Positions 5,718 to 19,987 of a stretch of DNA of 24,000 bases are shown here, one piece after another (position 1 is the first letter of the stretch; each line of letters begins with the position of its first letter). Made by a program: the position numbers and the translations under genes. The stretch covers positions 248,443 through 272,442 of the forward strand of contig NZ_JBFNXJ010000004.1 of assembly GCF_040812015.1 (NCBI RefSeq). The letters run 5' to 3'. The notes beneath the pieces are model-generated. The model was not told the origin of the DNA, did no database searches, and saw only the letters and a program-made list of their open reading frames with translations. This DNA comes from Chitinivorax sp. PXF-14 (GTDB lineage Bacteria > Pseudomonadota > Gammaproteobacteria > Burkholderiales > SCOH01).

Positions 5718-6488
5718 ATGGAAATCATCTCGTCGCGCCAGAATACGCAAATCAAACAGCTCGCCAGGCTGATGGAGTCCGCGCGCGAGCGTCGCAAGGC
5801 AGGGCAGGCTGTGCTCGAAGGCATTCACCTGGTCACGGCGTGGCATGAGGCGGCGCGCGGCTTCGAGCTGCTGCTGGTTGCCGAGTCCGCGCTGGCCCAC
5901 GGCGAGATTGCGCCGCTCTGGCGCGATGCCGAGGCCCAGCGCAGGCTGGTCGTCGGCGACAGCCTGTTTGCCCAGCTCGCCGAAATCAGCGCCCCGGTCG
6001 GCATACTCGCTATCGTTGGTATTCCCAAGCCTGCTTCGCACCGCCACGACTGCATCGTGCTGCTAGACGACGTGCAGGACCCGCTCAATGTCGGCGGCAT
6101 CCTGCGCACCGCGGCGGCTGCCGGGGTGGGGGCCGTCCACCTGTCTGCCGGATGCGCCGACGCTTGGTCGCCCAAGGTGCTCCGAGGGGGCATGGGCGGA
6201 CACCTGGCGCTCGACATCCACGAACACGCCGACTTGGCCCAGGTCGCGCGCGATTTCCACGGGCAGGTCGCGGTGACTACCCTGCAGCACAGCCAATCGC
6301 TGTACGACACCGATCTGCGCGGCGCGACGGCATTCGTGCTCGGCAACGAGGGCGCCGGCGTCTCCGATGGCCTGCTTGTGCTGGCGACGCTGCGATTGCG
6401 TATTCCCATGCCGGGTAAGGTCGAGTCGCTCAATGTTGCGGCGGCGGCGGCGGTGTGCCTGTTCGAGCGCGTGCGCCAGCAGCTGTAG
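5718..6488 (+). CDS. TrmH/SpoU-family RNA 2'-O-methyltransferase (RlmB-like group)
   Basis: Three SpoU motifs are present: DDVQDPLNVGGILRTAAAAG, FVLGNEGAGVS and LRIPMPGKVESLNVAAAAAVCLFE. ATG 5718 (MEIISSRQNTQIKQL...) is preferred over TTG 5661. Confidence 0.8.
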   Translation: MEIISSRQNTQIKQLARLMESARERRKAGQAVLEGIHLVTAWHEAARGFELLLVAESALAHGEIAPLWRDAEAQRRLVVGDSLFAQLAEISAPVGILAIVGIPKPASHRHDCIVLLDDVQDPLNVGGILRTAAAAGVGAVHLSAGCADAWSPKVLRGGMGGHLALDIHEHADLAQVARDFHGQVAVTTLQHSQSLYDTDLRGATAFVLGNEGAGVSDGLLVLATLRLRIPMPGKVESLNVAAAAAVCLFERVRQQL

Positions 6489-6711
6489 CGCCTGTTTACG
6501 GCCTGCCGCAAGCAGGGCAGGGCGATCAGCCGCGCATGAATCTTCCTTAAATGGGGCGTGCCGGCATGGCGGCTCGCCGATCTCACGGCAATCCGATATC
6601 CAGCCCGATGGGTCGCCGTGGGCACGGCGCTTCAATGCATCGGCCCGGATCAAGCCCGTCGATTCTGATAAAATTCCACCTCTTCCCTCCATCAACACCG
6701 TCGGGGCCGCA

Positions 6712-8232
6712 ATGACCGTGATTCGCCAGCAAGACTTCATCGATAGCATCTACGACAGCCTGCAGTTCATTTCCTACTACCATCCGATCGACTATATCCA
6801 GGCGCTCGGCGCGGCGTATGAACGCGAAGAATCCCCTGCCGCCAAGGATGCCATCGCTCAGATCCTGACCAATTCGCGTATGTGTGCCGAGGGGCATCGC
6901 CCGATCTGCCAGGACACCGGCATCGTCTGCGCCTTCGTCAAGGTCGGCATGGATGTGCGTTGGGAAGGCTGTACCATGTCCATTCAGGACATGGTCAATG
7001 AAGGCGTGCGCCGTGCCTACAACGATGCCGACAACAAGCTGCGTGCCTCGGTCCTCGCCGACCCGGCCGGCCTGCGCAAGAACACGCGCGACAACACGCC
7101 CGCCGTCGTACATTTCGACCTGGTGCCGGGTAACACCATCGAGGTGAAGATCGCGGCGAAGGGCGGCGGCTCGGAAAACAAGTCCAAGTTCGCGATGCTC
7201 AACCCGTCCGACAGCATCGTCGACTGGGTGCTCAAGACCGTACCGTTGATGGGCGCTGGCTGGTGCCCGCCGGGGATGCTTGGCATCGGCATCGGCGGCA
7301 CCGCGGAAAAGGCGATGATGCTGGCCAAGGAATCGTTGATGGAGCACATCGACATCCAGGAGCTGATCGCGCGCGGCCCGCAAAACCGTGTCGAGGAACT
7401 GCGCATCGAGCTGTTCGAGAAGGTCAACGCACTTGGCATCGGTGCGCAGGGCCTGGGCGGCCTGACGACGGTGCTCGACGTGAAGATTCTCGATTACCCG
7501 ACGCACGCTGCCAGCTTGCCGATCGCCATGATCCCGAACTGCGCCGCAACACGCCACGTTGAATTCTCGCTGGACGGCAGCGGCCCCGCCAAGCTCGATG
7601 CACCCAAGCTGGAAGACTGGCCGGCCGTGACCTGGTCGGCCTCGGCCTCGGCGCGCCGTGTCGATCTGAACCAGGTGACGGCAGAAGACGTCGCCAGCTG
7701 GAAGCCGGGCGAAACCCTGCTGCTGAACGGCAAGCTGCTGACGGGGCGCGACGCGGCCCACAAGCGCATGGTGGACATGCTCAACAAGGGCGAGAAGTTG
7801 CCGGTCGATTTCACCAACCGCTTTATCTATTATGTCGGCCCCGTCGATCCGGTACGCGACGAAGTGGTTGGCCCTGCTGGCCCGACGACGGCCACGCGCA
7901 TGGACAAGTTCACACGCCAGATGCTGGAGCAGACCGGCCTGCTGGGCATGGTGGGCAAGGCTGAGCGCGGCCCCGTTGCGATCGATGCGATCAAGGACAG
8001 CAAGGCGGTATACCTGATGGCCGTTGGTGGCGCGGCCTACCTGGTGTCGAAGGCGATCAAGGCGGCCAAGGTCGTCGCCTTTGAAGACCTGGGCATGGAG
8101 GCCATTTACGAGTTCGACATCGTCGACATGCCGGTGACGGTTGCCGTCGATAGCCAGGGTACGTCGGTCCACAAGACCGGCCCAGCTGAGTGGCAGGCCC
8201 GGATCGGCAAGATTCCCGTCGCCACAAACTGA
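6712..8232 (+). CDS. Class I (Fe-S dependent) fumarate hydratase, single-polypeptide ~506 aa form
   Basis: The sequence MTVIRQQDFIDSIYDSLQFISYYHP...CQDTGI...KGGGSENKSK...CPPG..GIGIGGTAE (alpha-type region) is followed by ...LLLNGKLLTGRDAAHKRM...IYYVGP...GPTTATRMD (beta-type region). The 115-codon upstream extension in the ORF track (from 6367) is Arg/Cys/Ser-rich nonsense and is rejected. Confidence 0.9.
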   Translation: MTVIRQQDFIDSIYDSLQFISYYHPIDYIQALGAAYEREESPAAKDAIAQILTNSRMCAEGHRPICQDTGIVCAFVKVGMDVRWEGCTMSIQDMVNEGVRRAYNDADNKLRASVLADPAGLRKNTRDNTPAVVHFDLVPGNTIEVKIAAKGGGSENKSKFAMLNPSDSIVDWVLKTVPLMGAGWCPPGMLGIGIGGTAEKAMMLAKESLMEHIDIQELIARGPQNRVEELRIELFEKVNALGIGAQGLGGLTTVLDVKILDYPTHAASLPIAMIPNCAATRHVEFSLDGSGPAKLDAPKLEDWPAVTWSASASARRVDLNQVTAEDVASWKPGETLLLNGKLLTGRDAAHKRMVDMLNKGEKLPVDFTNRFIYYVGPVDPVRDEVVGPAGPTTATRMDKFTRQMLEQTGLLGMVGKAERGPVAIDAIKDSKAVYLMAVGGAAYLVSKAIKAAKVVAFEDLGMEAIYEFDIVDMPVTVAVDSQGTSVHKTGPAEWQARIGKIPVATN

Positions 8233-8250
8233 TTTTCTTCCTTGTACCAG

Positions 8251-8281
8251 CAAAGGGGCCCATATGGGCCCCTTTGTTTTT
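8251..8281 (+). terminator. Rho-independent terminator of the fumarase gene
   Basis: CAAAGGGGCCCA-ta-TGGGCCCCTTTG is a perfect palindromic stem, followed by TTTTT. Confidence 0.85.
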
Positions 8282-8540
8282 GGGCGGATACACGCGAATC
8301 ATCGAAGTGCGGCTGTTCCAGCTGTATGCAAATGACAGGAAAACGTCACAGGGCGAGGGATGGGCGAAGTAAAACTTAGTAGGCCTCGGAACGTGACGAG
8401 GGCTGGGTAGGCGAAAAATTGGGCCGGGATTTTGATCTTGTGTTTGGTGATTTCTATTTTTATTACAAAGACTTATCGTGTTTCGAATACGCTGTCGTCA
8501 TTCCTCGATATGAAAAGTTCATTTTTTTTATGCATTCTTG

Positions 8541-8569
8541 TTGACACCTGAGAGTTAAAGCTCTAATCT
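8541..8569 (+). promoter_or_regulatory. Strong candidate sigma70 promoter of the secreted-protein gene (TTGACA-17 nt-TAATCT) with an A/T-rich UP-like tract upstream
   Basis: TTGACA at 8541-8546, a 17-nt spacer, TAATCT at 8564-8569. It is preceded by AAAAGTTCATTTTTTTTATGCATTC (8513-8538). It predicts a ~125-nt 5' UTR ending in the SD AGGAG (8689-8693). Confidence 0.5.
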
Positions 8570-8700
8570 AGAGTCCATGCACTAAACGTAACGGCGCGAA
8601 ACAAATCAAAAGCACTGCGCATGTGTCTGGTGCATGGTTTAGAGGGGTATCAGTTTTTCCAACTGTCATTAACTAAGTCTGATAAACGAGGAGTAAAACT

Positions 8701-9405
8701 ATGAAGAAGTCTCTGATTGCTGCTGCACTGGCCCTGGCATCCGTTCCTGCTTTCGCTCAAATGACCAACGTCGACGACGAAGTTCTGGGCACCCAAACCG
8801 GTCAAGAAGGTATCAGCATCGCACTGACCATCAAGGCTCACATCGATGACGTGATCTGGACTGACGATGGCAACTCCCTGCACTTCCAAGACATCGCGAT
8901 CGGTAGCGGCAGCACCATCGCTCGTCAAGTTGGCTTCGCAGTTGGTGGCAACACTCAGTACCTGAGCACTGGCACTGACTACTCCAACCCGGTTATCTTC
9001 CTGTCGCCGATCCGTATCGACGTTAAGAAGCTGGACCAAATCAACTTCACTATCGTTGATCAAGGCATGGGCACTGCACCTGCTGGCCTCGTAAACGTTA
9101 ACGGCACTGCTACCAACGTTCCGAACGGCAACACCCTGGCTCCGGGCTACGTTGTTAACTACGCTGACTACCTGAAGGCTTACGGCGCTAACGACGTTCT
9201 CGAAGGTGGTGCTGGCTCCAACGGCGCTCCTGGCTCGATCACTGGCACCAACTACGCTTCCGCAATCGTAATCGAAATGCCGCGTACTGTTGCTAGCTTC
9301 CGCGTCGGCGCGATCAAGGTAGGTAACGGTGCTTCGATGGGCTCCTTGGAAATGAAGGGTATGGACTTCTACGGTACCAAGGTTGCAATCTGGGGTCACC
9401 AGTAA
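8701..9405 (+). CDS. Secreted 234-aa protein with strong expression signals, Cys-free and G/N/T/V/I-rich (predicted beta-rich); family not recognised with certainty; putative cargo of the island
   Basis: AGGAG SD 7 nt upstream of ATG. Sec signal peptide MKKSLIAAALALASVPAFA|Q. Codon usage differs sharply from the neighbours (my count: Val GTT 14/20, Ala GCT 17/27, Gln CAA 7/9, Arg CGT 3/4). The gene has its own promoter and its own strong terminator. Confidence 0.8.
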   Translation: MKKSLIAAALALASVPAFAQMTNVDDEVLGTQTGQEGISIALTIKAHIDDVIWTDDGNSLHFQDIAIGSGSTIARQVGFAVGGNTQYLSTGTDYSNPVIFLSPIRIDVKKLDQINFTIVDQGMGTAPAGLVNVNGTATNVPNGNTLAPGYVVNYADYLKAYGANDVLEGGAGSNGAPGSITGTNYASAIVIEMPRTVASFRVGAIKVGNGASMGSLEMKGMDFYGTKVAIWGHQ

Positions 9406-9434
9406 TCAGTCTGCTGACAACGTCAGCCTGATTG

Positions 9435-9475
9435 AAAATCCACCACGGTTTTCCGTGGTGGATTTTTTATTTTTT
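9435..9475 (+). terminator. Strong rho-independent terminator/attenuator after the secreted-protein gene
   Basis: AAAATCCACCACGG-tttt-CCGTGGTGGATTTT forms a 14-bp perfect stem, followed by TTATTTTTT. Confidence 0.85.
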
Positions 9476-9705
9476 GCAGCTTGGCTAATTTATTTATTGA
9501 TTTACCGAAGATGACCACATCTTTTTGACTGAAAATCTCGCCGATTTGTCTGGTGTGAACGTGGTTTTGTTGTTTGTTTTTCTAGTATGCGATTGATATT
9601 GCTGGATATTTTGTCTGACAATAGTTTAAATGCATAAAAATTATTGAAAAAAAACCAAAACCCAGTAATATCCGATATGCGCGATGCATTGATTTGGAGT
9701 GGGGG

Positions 9706-10455
9706 ATGTTTCTTTCTATCGTAATGGCCTTGATGGCGATGACCAATGTCGGCCTGACTGACATCAAGGACAGCCCCGACGGCGTTTACCCTGTACAAAC
9801 CATTCCGGAATTCAGGGGGGGCGAACAGATCGCCATCCGTCCCTTGTCCGACCTCAAATACAGCGGCCTGGTGCATCAGGCATTCGACTACAGCTGTGGC
9901 TCGGCTGCGCTGACAACCGTTCTTAATTATTTCCTCAGCGAAAGCCTGCAAGAGTCGGAAGTCATGGAAGGCATGCTCAAGTTCGGCGAGAAGGACAAGA
10001 TCGTGCAGCGTCGTGGTTTCTCGCTGCTCGACATGAAACGCTATGTCGCATCGCTAGGCTACAAGAGCGCGGGCTTCAAGGCTGAATTGAGCGATCTGAT
10101 CGACCTGCGTCAACCGGGCATCGTTGGTATTCAGCATGCAGGTTTCAAGCATTTCGTGGTGTTCCGCGAGATCCGCGACGGCCATATCTATTTGGCAGAT
10201 CCTGCCCAGGGCAAGATCAGTTTTACGACATCCGAGTTTCTCAAGTTCTGGGATGGTAACGTGCTGTTCCTCATCTATCCCAAGGACGGCGTCGATATCA
10301 ACAATCGTCTGGAACTGACTGACAACGATTTGCGCGTGATGGACGAAGATCGCATCCGGCAATCGGTGTTGGCTACGCTACCGGCTTTTGGCCTGCCACT
10401 GGATCGTAAGGTCGATAAAGCCGCAGGCGGCACGGTTTATTACAAGCATAAATAG
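9706..10455 (+). CDS. Stand-alone C39-family cysteine peptidase (no ABC transporter fusion), N-terminal hydrophobic segment, probably periplasmic; FapD-like in architecture
   Basis: ATG 9706 follows GGAGTGGGGG. The motif Q58-x5-C64 (HQAFDYSCGSAALTTVLNYF) and H149...D165 (KHFVVFREIRDGHIYLADP) give a complete Gln/Cys/His/Asp set with a His-to-Asp spacing of 16, as in bacteriocin-processing C39 domains. The ORF ends after 249 aa, 14 bp before the next gene. Confidence 0.8.
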   Translation: MFLSIVMALMAMTNVGLTDIKDSPDGVYPVQTIPEFRGGEQIAIRPLSDLKYSGLVHQAFDYSCGSAALTTVLNYFLSESLQESEVMEGMLKFGEKDKIVQRRGFSLLDMKRYVASLGYKSAGFKAELSDLIDLRQPGIVGIQHAGFKHFVVFREIRDGHIYLADPAQGKISFTTSEFLKFWDGNVLFLIYPKDGVDINNRLELTDNDLRVMDEDRIRQSVLATLPAFGLPLDRKVDKAAGGTVYYKHK

Positions 10456-10469
10456 AATTCGATTACGGG

Positions 10470-11879
10470 GTGCTTCAATTGAACAAGCAAATCGTCGCGC
10501 TGGCCTTGGCGCTTATGGGTGGAACCGCAGTCGCAGCCGATGCGGATGCCGAGCCGAAACGCACACCGCTTGGTGTGAACCAGATCCAGGAGCCGGGGGA
10601 GTCCAAAAAACTGCAACCGGTAACGGACCTGCCGCAGGACAGCCGCCCGGCTGCCACGGCAGCTGAGGCACCCGCTGCTCCGGCGCAGGCCAGCCAGAAA
10701 AACGCCAAGAAGGGCAAAGGCGCCAAGACCGCAACGGCAAGCGCGGAAGCCGTAGCTGCACCCGCCGCGGCACAAAAGGCAGCGGAACCCAAGGCTGCCA
10801 CGGCGCAAGCGCCAGCCGAACCTAAACCAGTAGCAGAGACGAAGCCCGCTGTCGCGTCGACACCGGCCCCAGCTGCCGCACCAGCCAGCGCACCGCCGGC
10901 CAAGACCGCTGCGGCGCCTGCTGCCGGCGGCAAGGATACAACCGATGCGGCTCGCCAGGCACTGGCGAAGCAGGAAGGCGACAAGGACAACAAGAAGCTG
11001 GCTGAAGACGTGCTGACCTCGCAGGAAAAGAACTACACCCTGCTCAAGAAGGGCTCGTTCGATTTCAGCTATGACTTCAACTACAGCTATATCAGCGCGG
11101 ATCGCCTCGATTACGCCGTCGCCAGCAACAGCCAGAACCAGTTCAATATCTCCAAGTTCGGGCTGGAGCGTGACGCGACGCATACGGTGACCAACACGAT
11201 TACCGGCGACTATGGCCTGCGCGACAACCTGACCGTGGGTGTGTCAGTACCGCTGGTGTACAAGTACGACTCGTCCAACAATCTGAAGCGCTGGGTGACC
11301 GGTATCGGTGATCTCTCGCTCAACACGCGCTGGCAGCCTATCGAGGTGTCGCGCCGCATGCCGTCGCTGACCATCAACGGCTCGGTGCGTGCGCCGACCG
11401 GCATCAGCCCCTACGAGATCATCGCCGGCAAGGAATTGTCGACCGGTAGCGGCTATTGGGGCGGCACCGTCAGCGGCAACCTGTCCAAGGTCATCGACCC
11501 GGTCGTGCTGTTCGGCTCCCTGGGCTACTCGTACAACCTCAAGAAGACTGGCCTGAACCAGGTGCGCGGCAACGAAGGCCGCCGTATCTCCGCCATCGAG
11601 CCGGGCAGCGGCTTCAACGTGGGCGCCGGCTTCGGCTACGCCTTGTCGTACGATATCGCGCTGAACCTGTCGACCCAGGTGTCGTGGTCCAAGCAATCGC
11701 AGCTGATCTTCCATGATGGCACCTCGGTCATGCTCGACATGGAAACCTCGGGCTCGATGAACTTTGGCCTGACCTGGCGCCTCGACCCCAAATTCACGCT
11801 CGGCTTTACTGCCGCCATCGGCTTGACCAACGAGTCGCCTGACTTCTCGTTCGGCGTGAACATGCCGCTCAACTTCTAA
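10470..11879 (+). CDS. Outer-membrane beta-barrel protein (MetA-pathway/'transporter'-type barrel) preceded by a long Ala/Pro/Lys-rich linker and a charged helix; FapF-like architecture
   Basis: Signal peptide (LNKQIVALALALMGGTAVAA). Residues ~58-153 are almost only A/P/K/T/E/Q/S. A charged helix follows (DTTDAARQALAKQEGDKDNKKLAEDVLTSQEK). The ~275-aa C-terminal region has alternating beta-strand patterns, a TGIGDLSLNTRWQP motif and a terminal ...NMPLNF (C-terminal Phe, an OMP signature). The start could be GTG 10470 or TTG 10479. Confidence 0.7.
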   Translation: MLQLNKQIVALALALMGGTAVAADADAEPKRTPLGVNQIQEPGESKKLQPVTDLPQDSRPAATAAEAPAAPAQASQKNAKKGKGAKTATASAEAVAAPAAAQKAAEPKAATAQAPAEPKPVAETKPAVASTPAPAAAPASAPPAKTAAAPAAGGKDTTDAARQALAKQEGDKDNKKLAEDVLTSQEKNYTLLKKGSFDFSYDFNYSYISADRLDYAVASNSQNQFNISKFGLERDATHTVTNTITGDYGLRDNLTVGVSVPLVYKYDSSNNLKRWVTGIGDLSLNTRWQPIEVSRRMPSLTINGSVRAPTGISPYEIIAGKELSTGSGYWGGTVSGNLSKVIDPVVLFGSLGYSYNLKKTGLNQVRGNEGRRISAIEPGSGFNVGAGFGYALSYDIALNLSTQVSWSKQSQLIFHDGTSVMLDMETSGSMNFGLTWRLDPKFTLGFTAAIGLTNESPDFSFGVNMPLNF

Positions 11880-11896
11880 GCCGGGAGTTGAGTACG

Positions 11897-13513
11897 ATGG
11901 CGAAGTCAACATACAGCCTGCGCGGCAAGTGGCGCGAGGCGCTCGTAGCCTCTGTCCTGGCGGCGCTGAGCGCTCCGTCGCTGGCGGCGGTCGGGGAAAA
12001 CATCGGTGTCAGCCTGCGTGCCATGTCGCTGGGCAATGCCGTGACGGCCGACCCGGGCGGGATCGAGGCGGTACACTACAACCCGGCGGGGCTTACCCAC
12101 CTGACCGGCAAGCGGCATGATCTGACCTTGATGGCGGCACGTGTGCGCACGTTTGCCGAGTTCAATGCGCCGGAGGATTACAAGGGCATCTTCGGCTTCA
12201 AGGAAGACCCGGTCATCGGCCAGCGCAGCACCAGTGCCGATCACGCGTTCTACGTCCCGGGCATCGGCCTGGTGAAGCCCAAGGTGCCGGTCATCGTGGC
12301 GCCGATGAGCGGCTTCTCGTACAACGAGCCCGATTCTCGCTTCACCTTCGCGGACATGCTGTTTGCGCCGCAGCTGGTGGCCTACGACCGCTCGCGCCAA
12401 GGGGATGACGATCCGACCCGCTTCGGCGGTCGCACCATGGTGCTGCAGCGTTTCACCTATTTCGCGCCATCGATGGGCTACAAGGTCAGCGATACCTTGT
12501 CGCTGGGCGTGACGGCATCACTGTCGCACCATGCGCTGGCGCTCAATACCGATTTCCGGGCGCCGAACCAGCTGCTCGCGATGGTCGGGCAATTGCAGAA
12601 AGCGCTGTGCCCCGAGGGGGGCAACCCGATCGATACGGTATTGTTCGGCCTGTGTAGCAAGGGGCGGATGAACCCGTTCAACAAGATCGCCAACCTGGAG
12701 TTCCAGGTTTCCGTTCCTTCCGACCCGACTCTCTATCTGGGCTTTCTGTGGGAACCGAACGACTGGTTCGCGCTCGGCGGCGTGTACCAGAGCGAGAGCA
12801 AGATGCGCATGACGGGCAAGTACAAGTTCGAGTACGACCCCAATATCCGCGCCTTCTACGATGGCGTCAGCCATTCGGCTCTGGGCCCGATCATTCTGGC
12901 GGCGCTGGCGCAGCCGAGCTCGGTGCCGGAGAAGGAAGAGGGCAACGTGACCTTGACGCTGCCGTATCCGAAGCACATCCAGGTCGGTACCAAGTTCAAG
13001 TTCGGCCGTATCCAGTTGAACGGCGACGTCAGCTGGACCAACTGGAAGGCGTGGGAGAACTTCGTCTTCGACTTCGACCAGGAGCTGTCTGCGCTGCAGA
13101 TGGCCCGCCTGTTCGGTTACCCCGATGCGACCAAGCTGGTGATGCCGCGCGGTTACAAGAACACCTGGAGCGGCGGTATCGGCTTGCAGGTCGATGTGAC
13201 CAGCAAGCTGCGCACGCGCATGGGGGTGGAGTTCCGCAAGAGCTCGGTGCGGCCGGACCGCATCGATACCGTGGCACCGCTGTCGGATGACCGCTTGTAC
13301 GGGATCGGCTTCGGCTATTCGATCGACAAGTTCACCGATATCGACGCGACGATCGCCTTCCTGCATACGCGTTACACGGCGCAGGCCAATTCGAGTTGCA
13401 ACCTGAACTGCGACAACCTGCTGAACGTGGTGTACAACCCGTATGCGGGCCTGGATGTGACCACTGGCCTCAAGGTCGACGTGGGCGGCATCACCATCCG
13501 CAAGCGTTTCTAA
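11897..13513 (+). CDS. Outer-membrane transport protein of the OMPP1/FadL/TodX family, unusually long (538 aa)
   Basis: GGGAG at 11883-11887, 9 nt before ATG 11897. Signal peptide ...LAALSAPSLA|AVGEN. There is an N-terminal hatch-like segment with the family motif (SLGNAVTADPGGIEAVHYNPAGLTHL). Amphipathic beta strands run throughout and the protein ends ...GGITIRKRF. Two Cys pairs are present (ALCPEGG...FGLCSKG and SSCNLNCDN). Confidence 0.75.
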   Translation: MAKSTYSLRGKWREALVASVLAALSAPSLAAVGENIGVSLRAMSLGNAVTADPGGIEAVHYNPAGLTHLTGKRHDLTLMAARVRTFAEFNAPEDYKGIFGFKEDPVIGQRSTSADHAFYVPGIGLVKPKVPVIVAPMSGFSYNEPDSRFTFADMLFAPQLVAYDRSRQGDDDPTRFGGRTMVLQRFTYFAPSMGYKVSDTLSLGVTASLSHHALALNTDFRAPNQLLAMVGQLQKALCPEGGNPIDTVLFGLCSKGRMNPFNKIANLEFQVSVPSDPTLYLGFLWEPNDWFALGGVYQSESKMRMTGKYKFEYDPNIRAFYDGVSHSALGPIILAALAQPSSVPEKEEGNVTLTLPYPKHIQVGTKFKFGRIQLNGDVSWTNWKAWENFVFDFDQELSALQMARLFGYPDATKLVMPRGYKNTWSGGIGLQVDVTSKLRTRMGVEFRKSSVRPDRIDTVAPLSDDRLYGIGFGYSIDKFTDIDATIAFLHTRYTAQANSSCNLNCDNLLNVVYNPYAGLDVTTGLKVDVGGITIRKRF

Positions 13514-13584: not shown

Positions 13585-15168
13585 TCAGTGCAAATCCACG
13601 CTCTGCGAGTAGCGGTTGTGACGCATCAGCGCCAGCAGCGGCAGGGCGCAGGCCAGGATGACGCCGAACCACAGGAACAGCTTGGCAAACGCCAGCATCG
13701 TTACCTGTTTCTCCACCTGCATATTCATCACCGCATAGGCCTTGATCTGCGCCATGGCATCGGGAATGCCGCGCCCGATCAGTATCTGCTTGAGCTGGGC
13801 CAGCCTGCCCATGGCCGCGGGATCGTTGCCGGCCAGGTGTTCGACCAGGTGCAGGCGCTCGCTCTGCTGCAAGTGGCCCAGGCTGGTGGCCGCCGTGGCG
13901 ATGCCCACCGAGCCGCCGAGCATGCGCGTCAGGTTGTAGAGGCCGCTTGCGCCGGGAATCTCGATCGCCTCGACATTGGACATGGCGAGGTTGTTCAGCG
14001 GCACGAACACCATCCCCAGCCCCAGCCCGCGTAATACCAGCGGCCAGAAGAAGTCGCCGGCACCGCTTTCGGTGGTGAAGTGGTTGTGCTGCCACATCGA
14101 GTAACAGAACAGCACCGTGCCCAGCACGATGAGCACCTTCGGCGATACGCCGCGCGCCACCAGCTTGCTGGTGGTGGCCAGCGCGATGGCCGTGGCGATG
14201 GCCGAGGGCAGGATGAACATGCCGGTCTGGAATGCGTTGAATCCCATCAGGGACTGCGCGTAAACCGGGAACATGAAGATCGTGCAGTACAGCGCGGCCC
14301 CGGTCAGGAACGCATACAGCAGGCCGGCGCTGAACTGGCCATCGCGCATGATGCGCAGGTTCACGATCGGGTGCTCGGTCTCCAGCTCGTGGATCACGAA
14401 GGTGTAAAGCGACACGAAGCTGACGATCACCAGCGTGATGATTTCGCCGGACTGGAACCAGTCTTGCTTCTCGCCGCGCTCGAGCATGGTCTGCAGCGTG
14501 CCGATGCCGACCGCGAGCAGGATCAGCCCGATATAGTCGATGCGCTCGGCCTTTTGCTGCAGGCCCGAGTCCGGCACGTAGATCAGCGTCAAGAGCAGCG
14601 CGACGATGCCGAATGGCAGGTTGATGTAGAAGATCCACGGCCAGGAATAGGCATCGGTGAGCCAGCCGCCGATCGTCGGGCCGAGCGCCGGGCCCGCCAT
14701 GATGCCCATGCCGAAGATGGCCATCGCCGTGCCCATCTCCTTCTGCGGGAAGACCTCGAAGATGGTCGCCTGCGCGGTGGCCAGCAGGCCGCCGCCGCCG
14801 ATGCCCTGAATGATGCGCCACATCACCAGCGACTCGAGCGTGGTGGCGGCGCCGCAGGCCATCGATGCGATCGTGAACAGGAGGATGGACAGCGCGAAGT
14901 AGTTGCGCCGCCCGAACTGGCTCGACAGCCAGCCCGAGATCGGCAGCACGATCACGTTGGCGACGACATAACCGGTCGACACCCAGGCGATCTCGTCGAG
15001 CGTCGCGCCGAGCGTGCCCATCATGTGGGGCACGGCGACGTTGACGATGCTGGTGTCGAGCAGTTCGAGCACCGAGGCAAGCGTCACCGTCATCGCGATG
15101 ATGAAGCGGTTGGCGTGGATGGCCGCGGGCGAGGTCGAGCGCGACAGCCCTGGCAGCATGGGGCGCAT
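13585..15168 (-). CDS. emrB: DHA2-family (EmrB/QacA) MFS multidrug efflux permease, 14-TM type
   Basis: 527 aa. The N-terminus is ...IIAMTVTLASVLELLDTSIVNVAVPHMMGTLGA...WVSTGYVVANVIVLPISGWLSSQFGRRN, typical of EmrB. It follows the adaptor gene with a 9-bp gap. Confidence 0.85.
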   Translation of the reverse strand: MRPMLPGLSRSTSPAAIHANRFIIAMTVTLASVLELLDTSIVNVAVPHMMGTLGATLDEIAWVSTGYVVANVIVLPISGWLSSQFGRRNYFALSILLFTIASMACGAATTLESLVMWRIIQGIGGGGLLATAQATIFEVFPQKEMGTAMAIFGMGIMAGPALGPTIGGWLTDAYSWPWIFYINLPFGIVALLLTLIYVPDSGLQQKAERIDYIGLILLAVGIGTLQTMLERGEKQDWFQSGEIITLVIVSFVSLYTFVIHELETEHPIVNLRIMRDGQFSAGLLYAFLTGAALYCTIFMFPVYAQSLMGFNAFQTGMFILPSAIATAIALATTSKLVARGVSPKVLIVLGTVLFCYSMWQHNHFTTESGAGDFFWPLVLRGLGLGMVFVPLNNLAMSNVEAIEIPGASGLYNLTRMLGGSVGIATAATSLGHLQQSERLHLVEHLAGNDPAAMGRLAQLKQILIGRGIPDAMAQIKAYAVMNMQVEKQVTMLAFAKLFLWFGVILACALPLLALMRHNRYSQSVDLH

Positions 15169-15177
15169 GGGGCTTCC

Positions 15178-16257
15178 TTAGCTGGCTTTGATGGTGGCGA
15201 ACACGCTCATGCCCGGGCGCAGCGGATGTTGCGCATCGTCACGCTTGGCCAAGCGGATTTTCACCGGGATGCGCTGCACGACCTTGGTGAAATTGCCCGT
15301 GGCGTTGTCCGGTGGCAGCAGCGTGAACTTGGCGCCGGTGGCGGCGCTGATCGATTCCACCTTGCCGTTGAAGGTCACGCCGGGGTAGGCATCGACTTCG
15401 ATTTCCGCCTCGGCGCCATTCCTGACCTTGCCGACATCGGTTTCCTTGACGTTGGCGACCACCCAGATGTCGTCGTCGGCAACGAGGCTCATCAGTGTCT
15501 GGCCCGGCTGCACCAGTTGGCCGACTTCGACGTTTTTCTTGCTGACGAGGCCGTTGCTCGGTGCCCTGAGGCCGGTATCGGCGAGCTGGATCGCCGCGAG
15601 GTCGCGCACCGCGCGTGCCGCGTCGACCTTGGAGCGTGCCGAGCGCAAGGCGGCCGAGTACACGGTCACCTGTTCGCCGGCCGCGCTGGCCGAGTCACGC
15701 GAGGTCTTGAGTTGCGCTTCGGCCGTTCGCACGGTGGTTTCCGCCGCGTCGAGCTGTTGCTGCGACGCCATCGCCTGGGCCGCGAGCGACTTGATGCGCT
15801 CGAGATCGTTCCTGGCCTTCTGCAGATTGGCTTCCGCCTGCTTGATGGTGGCGCTGGCCGCCGAGGCGTTGGCCTGGGCCCAGTTGATTTGCGCCACGGC
15901 CTGGCCGACATCGTTGCCCTGCTTGTTGCCGGTATTCGAGAGCGCAATGGCGAGCTCGGCCTCGGCCTGCAGCAGCTTGGCCTTGTAGTCGCGATCGTCG
16001 ATCTTGACCAGCTCGGAATCCGTCCTGACCAGCTCATTGTCCGAGACATTGACGGCGCGCACATAGCCCGCCACGCGCGCGGCGATCGGCACGATGCGGC
16101 CTTCGACCTGCGCGTTGTCGGTGCTCACATAGTGATGGCCGTACCACCAGCGGTAGCCGAGGCCGCCGGCAATGCCGATCGCCATGATCATCAGGACCAG
16201 GCGGGCCTTGCCCTGTTTTGCCGGTGCAGCGTTGCCGGCCGGGGTTTCTGTCGTCAT
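15178..16257 (-). CDS. emrA: HlyD-family efflux periplasmic adaptor (EmrA-like)
   Basis: It has an N-terminal TM anchor (RLVLMIMAIGIAGGLGYRWWY), a long Ala/Gln-rich coiled-coil hairpin, and a beta-barrel C-terminus (RPGMSVFATIKAS). The gene sits between the TetR and EmrB genes. Confidence 0.85.
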   Translation of the reverse strand: MTTETPAGNAAPAKQGKARLVLMIMAIGIAGGLGYRWWYGHHYVSTDNAQVEGRIVPIAARVAGYVRAVNVSDNELVRTDSELVKIDDRDYKAKLLQAEAELAIALSNTGNKQGNDVGQAVAQINWAQANASAASATIKQAEANLQKARNDLERIKSLAAQAMASQQQLDAAETTVRTAEAQLKTSRDSASAAGEQVTVYSAALRSARSKVDAARAVRDLAAIQLADTGLRAPSNGLVSKKNVEVGQLVQPGQTLMSLVADDDIWVVANVKETDVGKVRNGAEAEIEVDAYPGVTFNGKVESISAATGAKFTLLPPDNATGNFTKVVQRIPVKIRLAKRDDAQHPLRPGMSVFATIKAS

Positions 16258-16910
16258 GCTTGGTTCTCCGTGTTATCAGGTGCGGCCTGAATGCCTTTCA
16301 GCACGACACTCAGGTGAAAGCGGGTGAATTCGCCCAGGTCCATGGCCTCCTGGCCATAGGGGCTGAAGGTGTGGTGCCAGATGGTCTGCAGGATCACCGG
16401 CGAAATGATTTCCTTGATGGCGAAGCCGAGATGCATCGGGCGGAACTCGCCGGCCTGGATGCCGCGCTCGAGCACTTCGCCGAATACCTTGCGCACCCGC
16501 GTCATCACTTCATTCAGATAGAAGTTGGCCAGGTCGGGGAAATTGCCCGCCTCGGCGACCACGAGCTTGGAGATGCCGTTGGCGGGTGACTCGACGATCA
16601 GCTCGACCCATTTGTTCATCAGATGGGTCAGCATCTCGGTGGCCGACAGCTTGGAATCGGCGACGAACTCTTCCGCCATCTGGATCGACGGTATCAGCGT
16701 CTCGCGAATGGCTGCCTTGAACAGCTCTTCCTTGCTCGAGAAATACAGGTAAAGCGTGCCCTTGGTGACGCCGGCCGCGCGGGCGACCTCGTCGAGTTTG
16801 GTGGCGGCGAAGCCCTTCTGGATGAACAGGGCCAGCGCGGCACTGGTGATTTCCGAGGGGCGCGCATCCTTACGGCGTTGCCAGCGTGGGCTGCTACATG
16901 GAGTGTTCAT
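16254..16910 (-). CDS. TetR/AcrR-family transcriptional repressor, first gene of the efflux operon
   Basis: N-terminal HTH: RPSEITSAALALFIQKGFAATKLDEVARAAGVTKGTLYLYFSSKEELF. Its stop overlaps the emrA start by 4 bp (ATGA). Confidence 0.85.
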   Translation of the reverse strand: MNTPCSSPRWQRRKDARPSEITSAALALFIQKGFAATKLDEVARAAGVTKGTLYLYFSSKEELFKAAIRETLIPSIQMAEEFVADSKLSATEMLTHLMNKWVELIVESPANGISKLVVAEAGNFPDLANFYLNEVMTRVRKVFGEVLERGIQAGEFRPMHLGFAIKEIISPVILQTIWHHTFSPYGQEAMDLGEFTRFHLSVVLKGIQAAPDNTENQA

Positions 16911-16966: not shown

Positions 16967-17241
16967 CGAACTTTTCCAGTCTTTAGAGGACGTTATGCGT
17001 ATTGCTGGATGCCGTTACGGCGCAGCCTAGGCTTGGCGACGCGGCTGGGTTGCCGCCATGGGCATCTGGCGAGGAGGTGTGTGGGCGCATATATCCGCAA
17101 TTTGCCACCGAGGCGGCGGGTGGTGAGGCGGCGATGGAGGGGCCGGCTTGGCAGGCAGAACGCCTATCCAGACAGGGCCGCCGGTAATGGCGAGTGGCGC
17201 CGCCCCCGGCGCGGGCCGCCGAGTGTGACGGCCCACACTTA

Positions 17242-17973
17242 TTACTTGCTGCTGCGGCCTTGCAGTGTCTTGGTGAGCACGCCGCGCAGGATGTCGATTT
17301 CCTCGTTTTCGAGCCGCGCGCGCTTGTAGAGCCGGCGCAGCCGCGGCATCAGGCGCTTGGGGTTGGCCGGGTTGAGAAAGCCGATTTCGATCAGCGTGGC
17401 TTCGAGGTGTTGCAGCATGCCTTCGACCTGATCCTGCGTGGCCAGCGTGGGGGCCTCGTTCTGGTCATCGAACTCGCGCAGGCCCGCGGCCATGCGCAGC
17501 TCGTAGCACACCAGCTGCACCGCGGCGGCCAGGTTGAGCGAGCTGTAGACCGGGTTGGCCGGCACGTGCACGAGCAGATTGCACTGCATCACCTCGTCAT
17601 TGGAGAGGCCGAAGGTCTCGTTGCCGAAGACGAAGGCGATTTCATTGCTGCCCGCCAGGCCGACCATATGTTCCGCCGCTTCGCGCAGGTTTTCCGATGG
17701 CAAGGTCAGGTCGCGGCGGCGTGCCGACAGCGCGGCAACAAAGCCGACGCCGCTCAGCGCCTCACCGAGCGAGGTGCACGCGGTGGCGTTGCGCAGCACG
17801 TCGACGGCTCCGCTGGCCAGCGCGTCGGCATGGTCGCTGGGAAAGGCCTGCGGGCTGACGAGATAGAGCCGCGACAGGCCCATGACCTTCATCGCCCGGG
17901 CGGCCGAGCCGATGTTGCCCGGATGGCTCGGGCGCGAGAGAACGATGCGGATGCGGTCGAGTACGTTGTCCAT
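17242..17973 (-). CDS. trmJ: tRNA (cytidine/uridine-2'-O)-methyltransferase TrmJ (SpoU family)
   Basis: SpoU motifs are present: RIVLSRPSHPGNIGSAARAMKVMG, FVFGNETFGLS and VHVPANPVYSSLNLAAAVQLVCYEL. There is also a TrmJ-type C-terminal extension. The gene is divergent from suhB, as it is in E. coli. Confidence 0.8.
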   Translation of the reverse strand: MDNVLDRIRIVLSRPSHPGNIGSAARAMKVMGLSRLYLVSPQAFPSDHADALASGAVDVLRNATACTSLGEALSGVGFVAALSARRRDLTLPSENLREAAEHMVGLAGSNEIAFVFGNETFGLSNDEVMQCNLLVHVPANPVYSSLNLAAAVQLVCYELRMAAGLREFDDQNEAPTLATQDQVEGMLQHLEATLIEIGFLNPANPKRLMPRLRRLYKRARLENEEIDILRGVLTKTLQGRSSK

Positions 17974-18212
17974 GATGGGCTCGAAAAAGCAAAGCCGGCC
18001 ATTCTAGCGCAAACCCGAGTTTATTTATCCTCGAGAAAACAATACAATACGCGCCCATTGTCGCAGGCATCGGCTATTCTGAGGGCTGAGCCTGCTCGTT
18101 CCTTTTCATCGTGAGTGATGTCTGAGCCCGTCGGGCGGACGATACAGCGGCCCTGCCGGGTGCGTAGTCGTTCGTTTTGCGTGGCAGTCATCCTTCGCAC
18201 TGGAGTCACTAC

Positions 18213-19010
18213 ATGCACCCGATGCTGAATATTGCGGTCAAGGCCGCCCGCCGTGCCGGATCGATCATCAACCGCGCTTCCAACAACCTCGACGTGCTGC
18301 GTGTGGAGCGCAAGGGCCAGAGCGATTTCGTCTCCGAAGTCGACCGTGCGGCCGAGCAGGCGATCGTCGAAGTGCTGCTCGAAGCCTATCCGAACCACGC
18401 CATCCTGGCGGAAGAGGGCGGCGCGACAGGTGACTCCGAATTCCAGTGGATCATCGATCCGCTCGATGGCACGACCAATTTCCTGCACGGTTTCCCGCAA
18501 TATGCGATCTCGATCGCGCTGCAGCACAACGGCGTGCTGACCCAGGGCGTGATCTTCGACCCGGTACACAACGACCTGTTCACCGCCACGCGTGGCTCCG
18601 GCGCCTTCCTGAACGACCGCCGCATCCGCGTCGGCAAGCGCATCCAGCTGTCGGACGCGCTGATCGGCACCGGCTTCCCGTATTCCGACTTTACCCACCT
18701 CGACAGCTACCTCGCGATGTTCAAGGACCTGCTGCAGAAGACCGCCGGCCTGCGCCGCCCCGGTGCCGCCGCGCTGGACCTGGCCTATGTTGCCTGCGGG
18801 CGTTTCGATGGCTTCTGGGAGCTCGGGCTGAAGCCCTGGGATGTCGCCGCCGGCGCCTTGCTGGTGCAGGAGGCGGGTGGCCTGGTGAGCGATCTCGGCG
18901 GTAACGAGGGTTACCTCGAAAGCGGCAACCTGATCGCCGGCTCGCCCAAGATCTTCGGCCAGTTGCTGCAAGCCTTGCAGCCCCACCTGAACGACGCGCT
19001 CACGCGCTGA
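18213..19010 (+). CDS. suhB: Inositol monophosphatase family protein SuhB
   Basis: The N-terminus [16 protein letters not shown] is nearly the same as the E. coli SuhB N-terminus as I remember it. IMPase motifs are present ([25 protein letters not shown]). GGAG lies 7 nt upstream of ATG 18213. Confidence 0.9.
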
Positions 19011-19052: not shown

Positions 19053-19365
19053 TTCTCCTTGTTGCTGGTGTCGGCCCGATGCTTGATATGAGTCAAGAAT
19101 GATTGGGCGACTCGGTCTATGATTAAAAAATGTCCCGTCATCGACGTGATCTGCTGATCGCCACGTGATCCGATGCCCGCCCGCCCGCCAGGCACTCGAT
19201 CCGATTCACAATAACACCCGCCGCAGCGGCGGCACCTGATTGCTCCCCGCGCCTGGTCTCGGGCGTTGCCTATTGGGACTGGTTTCTAGCCTTCTCGCGA
19301 CATGTGCAAGGCATGCCCCTGCCTTGGCGTGTCGATCGGTCACTTGAGTTCTGGAGGTGTTATCC

Positions 19366-19881
19366 ATGTCCTACGATCAGCAATTCCCGCTTGCGCTGTA
19401 CAAGGCCAATCTCGGCTTGGCGGCGGATCTCTGCAATGTGATGCTCGAAAGCCTGCAGCGCTTTGGCTCGGTCGAGCTCGAAGCGCTTGCCGATGTCGAT
19501 GTCGCCTCGCTGGCCAATGCGAGTTCCGCCATGCTGCAGCGCGACCCGAGCGGTTTCCTCAAGCAGCAGGGCGAGGTGTTACAGACCCTGATGGGCCAGT
19601 GGAACGATCTAGCCCGTGTCTCCAATCATAATAACGCCGTCGTCGCGCAGGACTTGCAGCGAGCCGTCACCAACTGGCAGTCGGCCGTGCTGCAGGCGCT
19701 GGGCCAGCCCAAGGGGGCGGCAAACCTGGGCAACCCGCTGGCCGATGCCTTCAATGCCATGGCCAATGCGTCGGGCGAAATGTACCAGGCTTTCGTGAAA
19801 TCCACCCAGGATCTCGCTGGTGCGGCCGACGCCGGTATCAAGGCTGCAGCCAAGCCCGCCGCGCGCAGCAAGGCTGCCTGA
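19366..19881 (+). CDS. Phasin-like PHA granule-associated protein (putative)
   Basis: GGAGG lies upstream of ATG 19366. The 171-aa protein is Ala/Gln/Leu-rich, predicted all-helical, with a Lys/Ala-rich tail (AAKPAARSKAA). It sits immediately upstream of phaC. The assignment rests on composition and context, not on a recognised motif. Confidence 0.5.
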   Translation: MSYDQQFPLALYKANLGLAADLCNVMLESLQRFGSVELEALADVDVASLANASSAMLQRDPSGFLKQQGEVLQTLMGQWNDLARVSNHNNAVVAQDLQRAVTNWQSAVLQALGQPKGAANLGNPLADAFNAMANASGEMYQAFVKSTQDLAGAADAGIKAAAKPAARSKAA

Positions 19882-19903
19882 GCTTGCTCCGCCATCCTCG
19901 ATG

Positions 19904-19936
19904 AACTTGGCCGCCTTTTCCGGGCGGCCAAGTTTT
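19904..19936 (+). terminator. Rho-independent terminator after the phasin-like gene
   Basis: AACTTGGCCGCC-ttttccg-GGCGGCCAAGTT forms a 12-bp perfect stem running into TTTT. Confidence 0.6.
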
Positions 19937-19987
19937 GTGTGAACCCCGCCATGGCCCTGGCGGCGCAACCCGGAGTGCAGACCCGCG

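Follow-up and report, generated by a model that had tools for sequence, protein, structure and literature searches.

The stretch of DNA analyzed here, a window of 24,000 nucleotides from Chitinivorax sp. PXF-14 (contig NZ_JBFNXJ010000004.1, positions 248,443 to 272,442), carries on its plus strand an operon of four genes, filA, filB, filC, and filD, in that order. The leading gene, a filA-like gene of the DUF6160 family at 8701 to 9405, is an open reading frame (ORF) that runs from ATG to TAA and encodes a predicted pre-pro-subunit of 234 amino acids with zero cysteines, in agreement with the earlier note on this DNA, which had described the mature protein as Cys-free. The product is 100% identical to the entry “DUF6160 family protein [Chitinivorax sp. 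PXF-14].” The Pfam profile DUF6160 (PF19657) matched FilA at 61.3 bits (cut-off, 27; E = 1.1e-16), with residues 1 to 71 aligned to profile positions 4 to 73 of 96, and the NCBIfam model pilus_FilA (NF050077) matched at 42.1 bits (E = 7e-11), mainly over residues 4 to 58. By these profile scores, window FilA is classed as a distant homolog of Acinetobacter FilA that lies outside FilA proper. The DUF6160 signature, [DE]-D-x-x-L-x-x-x-[ST]-G-Q-x-G-[IV]-[ST]-I, follows the signal peptide and reads V-D-D-E-V-L-G-T-Q-T-G-Q-E-G-I-S-I in FilA; the post-signal motif that the earlier note had tentatively ascribed to an uncharacterized proteobacterial family is the core of this Pfam family, as both the 61.3-bit match and the family logo indicated.

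An exhaustive profile search yielded 118 cluster representatives of the FilA family. Its members have in common a signal peptide, the N-terminal motif, and a variable middle, and they end in a motif confined strictly to the C terminus, S-x-G-S...G-T-x-V-x-I-[WYF]-[GA]-H. This last motif is present in window FilA, which ends ASMGSLEMKGMDFYGTKVAIWGHQ, and a census of C-terminal motifs assigned its ...I-W-G-H terminus specifically to the family. The features that had been reported missing (a type IV pilin N terminus, FapC/CsgA-type repeats, and a terminal Phe) are indeed missing. Several long DUF6160 proteins, namely, P0011 (436 amino acids), P0018 (502 amino acids), P0057, and P0091, contain several copies of the unit, in which an N-strand-like segment without G-Q comes immediately after the C-terminal-type motif. 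They look like covalent tandems of the subunit, an arrangement which suggests head-to-tail packing in the polymer.

Three segments can be distinguished in the precursor. Residues 1 to 19 (MKKSLIAAALALASVPAFA; 8701 to 8757, plus strand) form a predicted Sec signal peptide with a K-K pair, a hydrophobic core, and a putative cleavage site at A-F-A; in the family logo, the signal peptide ends ...A-S-A directly before position -15 of the segment that follows. Residues 20 to 35 (QMTNVDDEVLGTQTGQ; 8758 to 8805, plus strand) form a putative double-glycine-like leader propeptide that ends in the invariant G-Q, as delimited by the family logo and by the start of the solved filament subunit 9XFV discussed below. 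Residues 36 to 234 (8806 to 9402, plus strand) are the predicted mature filament subunit, as judged from alignments, AlphaFold models, and the C-terminal motif. Within the latter, a conserved N-terminal strand block (residues 36 to 68) is followed by a strand IRIDV at about 104 to 108, a variable N/G-rich middle at about 110 to 185, and a conserved C-terminal strand block (residues 188 to 233) with the end I-W-G-H-Q. Between two Chitinivorax species, FilA is 55% identical and FilB is 75% identical; the differences in FilA are concentrated in the middle, where window FilA has a 23-residue N/G-rich insertion. Such divergence is what would be expected of a surface-exposed region.

The second gene, filB (9706 to 10455, plus strand), encodes a C39 cysteine peptidase (Pfam Peptidase_C39, 7.8e-20) that stands alone and has a hydrophobic segment at its N terminus. 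Its ORF opens with TTG at 9694, and the likely start is the ATG at 9706, which is preceded by GGAG. FilB matched the NCBIfam FilB model at 240 bits (cut-off, 475; E = 2.8e-71), the FapD model at 126.8 bits, and C39 domains in the PDB at about 1e-7, and its catalytic set, Q...C (QAFDYSCG), H (KHFVVF), and D (LADP), is invariant in four orthologs. The third gene, filC (10470 to 11879, plus strand), encodes a FapF-like beta-barrel channel of the outer membrane, in which a long periplasmic linker is rich in Ala, Pro, and Lys. FilC matched its NCBIfam model at 265 bits (cut-off, 630; E = 9.5e-79) and FapF at 90.7 bits; residues 169 to 468 matched the FapF crystal structures 5O65, 5O67, and 5O68 (E = 9e-20). 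The last gene, filD (11888 to 13513, plus strand), encodes an outer-membrane barrel of the FadL/TodX family (Pfam Toluene_X, 2.2e-45) and matched the NCBIfam FilD model at 464 bits (cut-off, 970; E = 6.9e-139). Neither FilB nor FilC reached the equivalog cut-offs for FapD and FapF, respectively (126.8 and 90.7 bits). The label “cargo” that had been given to the filA product was apt, the three downstream genes being a secretion and processing set composed of FapD-related, FapF-related, and FadL-type proteins. Two compositional features of these genes were also recorded. The low-complexity linker of FilC (about 130 amino acids, Ala/Pro/Lys-rich; 10560 to 10990), which precedes the barrel, causes an AT-skew spike of 0.51, and filB (9694 to 10455) is the AT-richest and least codon-biased gene of the window (G+C, 0.53; effective number of codons [Nc], 48.3), with a G+C deficit of about 10 points also seen in Chitinivorax sp. 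B (0.43 versus 0.53; L001 10776 to 11597).

The signals around filA suggest strong expression. A promoter can be read on the plus strand at 8541 to 8569, with the -35 element TTGACA (8541 to 8546), a 17-nucleotide spacer, the -10 element TAATCT (8564 to 8569), and an A/T-rich tract upstream. The -35 element, the spacer, the AGGAG Shine-Dalgarno sequence, and the private terminator named in the earlier note are all present; the -10 element matches the consensus at only 3 of 6 positions, and the promoter was thus not called by a consensus scan. Chitinivorax sp. B has an identical block, GTTGACAC...AAAGCTCTAATCTAGAGT, between divergent flanks. A palindrome, CTCTA-atc-TAGAG (8561 to 8573), overlaps the -10 element and is 100% conserved in that species; its sequence and position make it a possible operator. 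In the window, filA is not adjoined by a regulator gene, whereas in two fil loci of the Burkholderiales (L002 and L003) an AraC-type regulator is encoded upstream. The Shine-Dalgarno sequence lies at 8689 to 8693 (plus strand), 7 nucleotides before the ATG, and its surroundings, AGTCTGATAAACGAGGAGT, are conserved in Chitinivorax sp. B, as are further parts of the 5' untranslated region (5'UTR). Downstream, a terminator scan identified an intrinsic terminator or attenuator with a 15-bp stem, a 4-nucleotide loop, and a T-run (9434 to 9477, plus strand; called as hairpin plus T-run at 9434 to 9467), and an equivalent hairpin and T-run follows filA in Chitinivorax sp. B and the second subunit gene in Roseateles. 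An AT-rich spacer of 230 nucleotides with three promoter-like sites lies between this terminator and filB. The combination of a strong promoter and Shine-Dalgarno sequence before filA with a terminator before filB fits a large stoichiometric excess of the subunit over its machinery. A riboswitch or leader RNA upstream of filA was considered and dropped, since an Rfam search of 8200 to 9750 gave only subthreshold matches, on the terminator hairpin, and the 128-nucleotide 5'UTR folded no better than shuffled sequences (z = -0.45).

The codon usage of filA points in the same direction. A recount reproduced exactly the earlier figures for Val (GTT 14, GTA 3, GTC 2, GTG 1), Ala (GCT 17, GCA 7, GCG 2, GCC 1), Gln (CAA 7, CAG 2), and Arg (CGT 3, CGC 1), as well as the 32 G+C in the first 60 nucleotides of filA versus 41 in the fumarase stretch at 7261 to 7320. 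The contrast with the neighboring genes was equally borne out: at fourfold-degenerate sites, T was found in 58/130 cases in filA and in 255/3587 cases pooled over the 16 other delimited genes of the window (Fisher P = 7e-30), the shares being 45% for filA, 21% for filB, and 2 to 11% for 14 of the other genes. C-ending Phe, Tyr, Ile, and Asn codons accounted for 48/49 in filA, the highest share in the window, versus 730/934 in the other genes (P = 2e-4), and the Nc of filA (30.0) is the lowest in the window, though its G+C content at third codon positions (GC3, 0.64) is also the lowest. A comparison of filA with its own filBCD genes was extended to 61 loci that have filA plus at least two of filB, filC, and filD; these loci are not phylogenetically independent, and they span more than 10 genera and GC3 values of 0.30 to 0.97. 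In 60 of the 61 operons, filA had more fourfold T (median, +0.10; Wilcoxon, 1e-11), an equal number (60/61) showed less fourfold G, and 51/61 showed more C-ending Phe, Tyr, Ile, and Asn codons. The shift of +0.34 in window filA was the largest among them. By amino acid, Val, Ala, Gly, and Thr codons of filA moved toward T and away from G, whereas Leu and Pro codons moved toward G (CTG and CCG). This pattern, T for Val, Ala, Gly, and Thr with G for Leu and Pro, is the classic set of optimal codons in proteobacteria. Being specific to the amino acid, the shift cannot come from a change of base composition.

These counts bear on whether the codon usage reflects high expression or a foreign origin, both of which had been left open by the earlier note. 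If filA, or the whole operon, were a horizontally acquired island of lower G+C, its codon usage would mirror that of the donor genome. The G+C content does fall to 46 to 52% over 8500 to 10500, against about 64% elsewhere, filB is also AT-richer and weakly biased (G+C, 0.53; Nc, 48), and close FilA homologs are rare, with only three found at word-index sensitivity. An AT-rich donor, however, would give the opposite of the almost exclusively C-ending Phe, Tyr, Ile, and Asn codons and lowest Nc of filA, and it would not account for a shift that differs by amino acid, toward CTG and CCG yet also toward GTT and GCT, or for the recurrence of the contrast between filA and filBCD in nearly every operon over the whole GC3 range. 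Furthermore, the arrangement fumarase-filA-filB-filC-filD is the same in Chitinivorax sp. B, a species with a genome G+C about 10 points lower, so that the operon sits at the same site and is not a recent horizontal gene transfer. Acquisition from a foreign donor is therefore rejected as highly improbable, and the evidence supports translational selection on a very abundant protein as the source of the bias; of the two origins first offered, high expression stands.

The evidence that FilA is a fiber subunit came from profile comparisons and from characterized relatives. A profile built from 30 diverse members of the FilA family matched PDB entry 9XFV (25 chains, 173 amino acids, “bacteria pilus (like)”) at E = 4e-43. 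The entry is a cryo-electron microscopy structure of a helical “pilus-like-alpha” filament from the drip water of a karst cave (rise, 11.70 Å; twist, 283.86 degrees). The sequence was deduced from the density, and the structure served solely to validate a method for determining handedness, with no discussion of its biology (PMC12956863). Its subunits are folded and contain alpha-helices, and the filament does not have the 4.8-Å repeat of cross-beta fibrils (PMC12956863). We found no biological interpretation of 9XFV in the literature. Its closest genomic homolog in the collected set, at 86% identity, belongs to Roseateles sp. PN1, in an operon with four filA-like genes, the last of which is a weak match, followed directly by filB-filC-filD. 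When the N-terminal block of the Chitinivorax clade was compared with a profile of the 9XFV-like subfamily, hhalign gave a probability of 99.3%. In Acinetobacter, FilA is the subunit of the Fil fimbria and is abundant; it has been seen as a protein band and by liquid chromatography-mass spectrometry (PMC3498257, PMC11784438). In Acinetobacter sp. Tol 5, cells grown on triacylglycerol are covered with long curved Fil fimbriae, which are sparse after growth on toluene, lactate, or ethanol (PMC3498257, PMC11784438). These relationships, taken at the level of sequence, support the identification of window FilA as a fiber subunit. The original description of a secreted, beta-rich fiber, adhesin, or beta-solenoid protein is thus upheld for the fiber, through DUF6160, 9XFV, and the Fil fimbriae; the beta-solenoid is unproven, the confidently modeled core of FilA consisting of the terminal strands.

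Other identities for FilA were tried and rejected. There were no matches to porins or periplasmic binding proteins. A bacteriocin precursor was dismissed because FilA has a Sec signal, its product is about 200 amino acids long, and there is no ABC transporter. A type IV pilin or a chaperone-usher pilin was dismissed because the operon gave no such matches in Pfam or NCBIfam and the signal of FilA is of the ordinary Sec type.

The start of the solved chain also pointed to a second processing step, which was absent from the earlier note. The 9XFV chain starts D-G-V-S-I, at precursor residue 38, directly after ...S-G-Q, and extends to the last residue. A leader logo made from 181 nonidentical FilA-family sequences gave the consensus M(-15) T A I(-12) D D(-10) x x L(-7) S x V(-4) T G(-2) Q(-1), 15 residues counted from the signal A-x-A, with G at -2 in 100%, Q at -1 in 98%, L or M at -7 in 100%, a hydrophobic residue at -12 in 100%, and V or I at -4 in 85% of the sequences. 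In window FilA, the corresponding positions are G34 (-2), L29 (-7), V24 (-12), and Gln32 (-4), and AlphaFold places a short helix at residues 26 to 30. As far as the logo can tell, the spacing is that of double-glycine leaders, such as those handled by ComA, LahT, and PCAT1, with which the FilA leader shares the Gly at -2, Leu or Met at -7, hydrophobic residues at -12 and, in the family as a whole, at -4, acidic residues near -8 to -10, the predicted short helix, and an adjoining C39 gene with an intact catalytic set. Unlike in those systems, the leader follows a Sec signal, so that cleavage would be periplasmic, FilB is separate from any ABC transporter, the protein to be cut is a structural one of about 200 amino acids, the P1 residue is Gln, and window FilA has Gln at -4. 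Because the motif, the start of the solved subunit, and the gene linkage coincide, we infer that FilA is a pre-pro-protein composed of a Sec signal (1 to 19), a leader (20 to 35), and a mature part (36 to 234) and that FilB is the leader peptidase. The figure of about 215 amino acids given at first for the mature protein counts the removal of the signal peptide alone; removal of the leader at G-Q is a probable further step, and the form in the filament is probably residues 36 to 234 (199 amino acids). No paper describing a FilA leader or processing by FilB was found in the literature.

Counterparts of FilB and FilC outside the Fil systems are found in the Fap amyloid system of Pseudomonas (FapA to FapF), in which export relies on a C39 peptidase and the FapF channel (PMC6173795). 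The two systems have in common a periplasmic stand-alone C39 peptidase (FapD and FilB), an outer-membrane channel (FapF and FilC), and a Sec-exported, Cys-free fiber subunit. FilA might accordingly be imagined as a functional amyloid like FapC or FapB, exported unfolded through FilC and assembled into cross-beta fibrils; the homology of FilC to FapF (E = 9e-20 to 5O65) and of FilB to FapD (127 bits) and the Cys-free, Gly/Asn/Thr/Val-rich, beta-rich composition of FilA would all suit such a role. The cargo itself, however, is unrelated to FapC and FapB and lacks imperfect repeats of the FapC/CsgA type, DUF6160 being the sole Pfam match in FilA; the four-gene operon is without FapA-, FapB-, or FapE-type genes, no match to the FapA, FapB, FapC, or FapE models of NCBIfam was obtained among the four operon proteins scanned, and an additional FadL-type barrel is present. 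Moreover, the solved filament of the family consists of folded subunits that contain alpha-helices, with an 11.7-Å rise rather than a 4.8-Å cross-beta repeat. An amyloid is thus very unlikely, and the Fil system appears, by sequence comparison, to work most like a hybrid in which Fap-type export carries a nonamyloid, folded filament subunit as its cargo. No paper linking Fil to Fap was found.

FilD and the distribution of the loci raise another alternative. The loci were collected by a FilB-anchored scan of GTDB genomes, which returned 377 relatives, from which the best 80 loci were taken; these came from Ideonella, Roseateles, Massilia, Janthinobacterium, Duganella, Pseudomonas, Alcanivorax, Marinobacter, and others. 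Fil operons in this set (L004 to L083) were concentrated in hydrocarbon and lipid degraders, including Alcanivorax, Marinobacter, and the Pseudomonas nitroreducens group, and in L003 a wax-ester synthase (WS/DGAT) gene lies just after the operon (17093 to 18439). The membership of FilD in the FadL transporter family, the induction of Fil fibers by triacylglycerol in Tol 5, and the lipid-degrader loci together hint at a link to hydrophobic substrates and at a role in capturing them. FilA could then be an abundant secreted or surface protein that does not polymerize and that captures, for example, hydrophobic substrates for FilD, a view to which the wax-ester synthase gene in L003 and the divergent, poorly modeled middle of window FilA lend further color. 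Yet both blocks conserved throughout the family, which are the ends of the 9XFV subunit, are intact in window FilA, the homologs from Acinetobacter and from cave water form filaments, and a fiber and substrate capture are compatible with each other. A nonpolymerizing FilA is for these reasons considered very unlikely.

Taken together, we consider it quite probable that filA is the single major subunit gene of a Fil-type (DUF6160) filament, that it heads a minimal filA-filB-filC-filD operon, and that it is highly expressed. Several observations weigh against this interpretation. All four Fil proteins fall short of their curated NCBIfam cut-offs (42/220, 240/475, 265/630, and 464/970 for FilA to FilD), FilA reaching 42.1 of the 220 bits set for pilus_FilA, and filE and filF are absent, since the operon ends at 13513 and the next gene is a minus-strand major facilitator superfamily (MFS) pump (13585 to 15168). 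No FilA-like gene was found within 6 kb in 27/84 filBCD loci. Window FilA alone aligned to 9XFV over its last 36 residues only (14 bits database-wide; pairwise E = 9e-7). Its AlphaFold models had predicted local distance difference test (pLDDT) scores of 59 to 60, with values of >80 only at residues 37 to 68 and 188 to 233, and a Foldseek comparison of these models with the PDB gave no match at E < 0.001, 9XFV not being among the 50 matches listed; fold identity with 9XFV therefore rests on sequence profiles. As regards processing, Gln occupies P1 in 98% of the family and in window FilA, in place of the Gly, Ala, or Ser typical of C39 substrates, the Chitinivorax clade has Gln instead of a hydrophobic residue at -4, and the first modeled residue of 9XFV could mark disorder instead of cleavage. 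Finally, the phasin gene in the window, used as a stand-in for the ribosomal-protein genes of this genome, lacks the codon bias of filA.

With filA as a filament subunit gene, the following pathway can be proposed. The strong promoter and Shine-Dalgarno sequence, the optimal codons, and the attenuating terminator, all of which can be seen in the sequence, would make FilA far more abundant than the proteins that assemble it. The Sec signal (residues 1 to 19) would carry pre-pro-FilA into the periplasm, where the C39 peptidase FilB would cut off the 16-residue leader (residues 20 to 35) at or beside G34-Q35. Judging from homology, FilC would then serve as the FapF-like channel by which the subunit crosses the outer membrane, and the FadL-like barrel FilD may have an accessory or anchoring role. 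Mature FilA (residues 36 to 234) would polymerize into a helical, nonamyloid filament of the kind seen for its homolog 9XFV (rise, 11.7 Å), in which the conserved N- and C-terminal strand blocks would make up the core and the variable N/G-rich middle would be exposed.

Comparison with other fil loci placed the Chitinivorax operon among the simplest. The gene order B-C-D was kept in about 80/84 loci, and a FilA-like gene lay within 6 kb in 57/84. The filA-less filBCD loci were mostly from Marinobacter, including L016, where the flanks contain unrelated transporters and a 359-amino-acid lipoprotein-like ORF; in such loci, either the subunit gene lies at another site or its sequence has diverged too far to be recognized. 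Operons of the Burkholderiales contained two to five filA paralogs and, between these and filB, genes for unknown proteins of about 277 amino acids (for example, L019 1600 to 3593 in Roseateles sp. PN1 and L002 9301 to 13002), and strong expression-type codon bias was limited there to the first filA paralogs. The Acinetobacter Fil system (filABCDEF; NCBIfam NF050077 to NF050080) resembles that of Chitinivorax in having a homologous subunit with the DUF6160 N-terminal motif, in placing the subunit gene first, and in having FilB, FilC, and FilD homologs in the same order; it differs in that the four Chitinivorax proteins, by their NCBIfam scores, are only distant homologs of FilA to FilD of this putative pilus system, in that the Chitinivorax operon has four genes and no filE or filF, and in that the Chitinivorax subunit has 234 amino acids versus 279 positions of the FilA model, with a different middle. 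The 9XFV subunit (UniProt A0A257CJ09-like) shares with window FilA the N-terminal strand block after G-Q and the C-terminal ...W-x-H end, but it belongs to a Burkholderiales subfamily of about 177 to 210 amino acids that is about 30% identical to window FilA, which carries an insertion of about 30 residues behind strand 3 and differs in its N/G-rich middle.

Elsewhere in the window, the region downstream of the operon (13585 to 16910) contains, on the minus strand, the emrB-like MFS pump, an emrA-like HlyD protein, and a TetR regulator, and a phasin-phaC pair lies at 19357 to 21712. Upstream, the listed ORF at 6367 to 8232 overextends the class I fumarase gene, the Pfam match beginning at residue 127 and the true start lying near 6700. 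Long spurious antisense ORFs were common throughout this high-G+C window.

On its own, filA is an ordinary gene that had already been annotated as DUF6160. The family is widespread in Beta- and Gammaproteobacteria, and to it belong the Fil fimbriae of Acinetobacter baumannii, of which FilF is a candidate for a vaccine. For telling translational selection from horizontal transfer without a ribosomal reference, the comparison of codon usage across 61 operons provides a clean example. Beyond this, we put forward, as a tentative proposal that we rate a little short of probable, that Fil/DUF6160 is a distinct class of pilus assembly without a published mechanism, in which a Sec-exported pre-pro-subunit loses a double-glycine-like leader ending in G-Q to a stand-alone periplasmic C39 peptidase, leaves by way of a trimeric channel of the FapF type that has a FadL-type partner, and forms a helix of folded subunits, the Chitinivorax operon being a minimal natural version. 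If this is true, FilB would add pilin maturation as a new role to those known for C39 enzymes. Linking the start of 9XFV and the invariant G-Q leader with the adjacent C39, FapF-like, and FadL-like genes makes the assembly pathway directly testable, and the operon of Chitinivorax is the smallest one available for this purpose.

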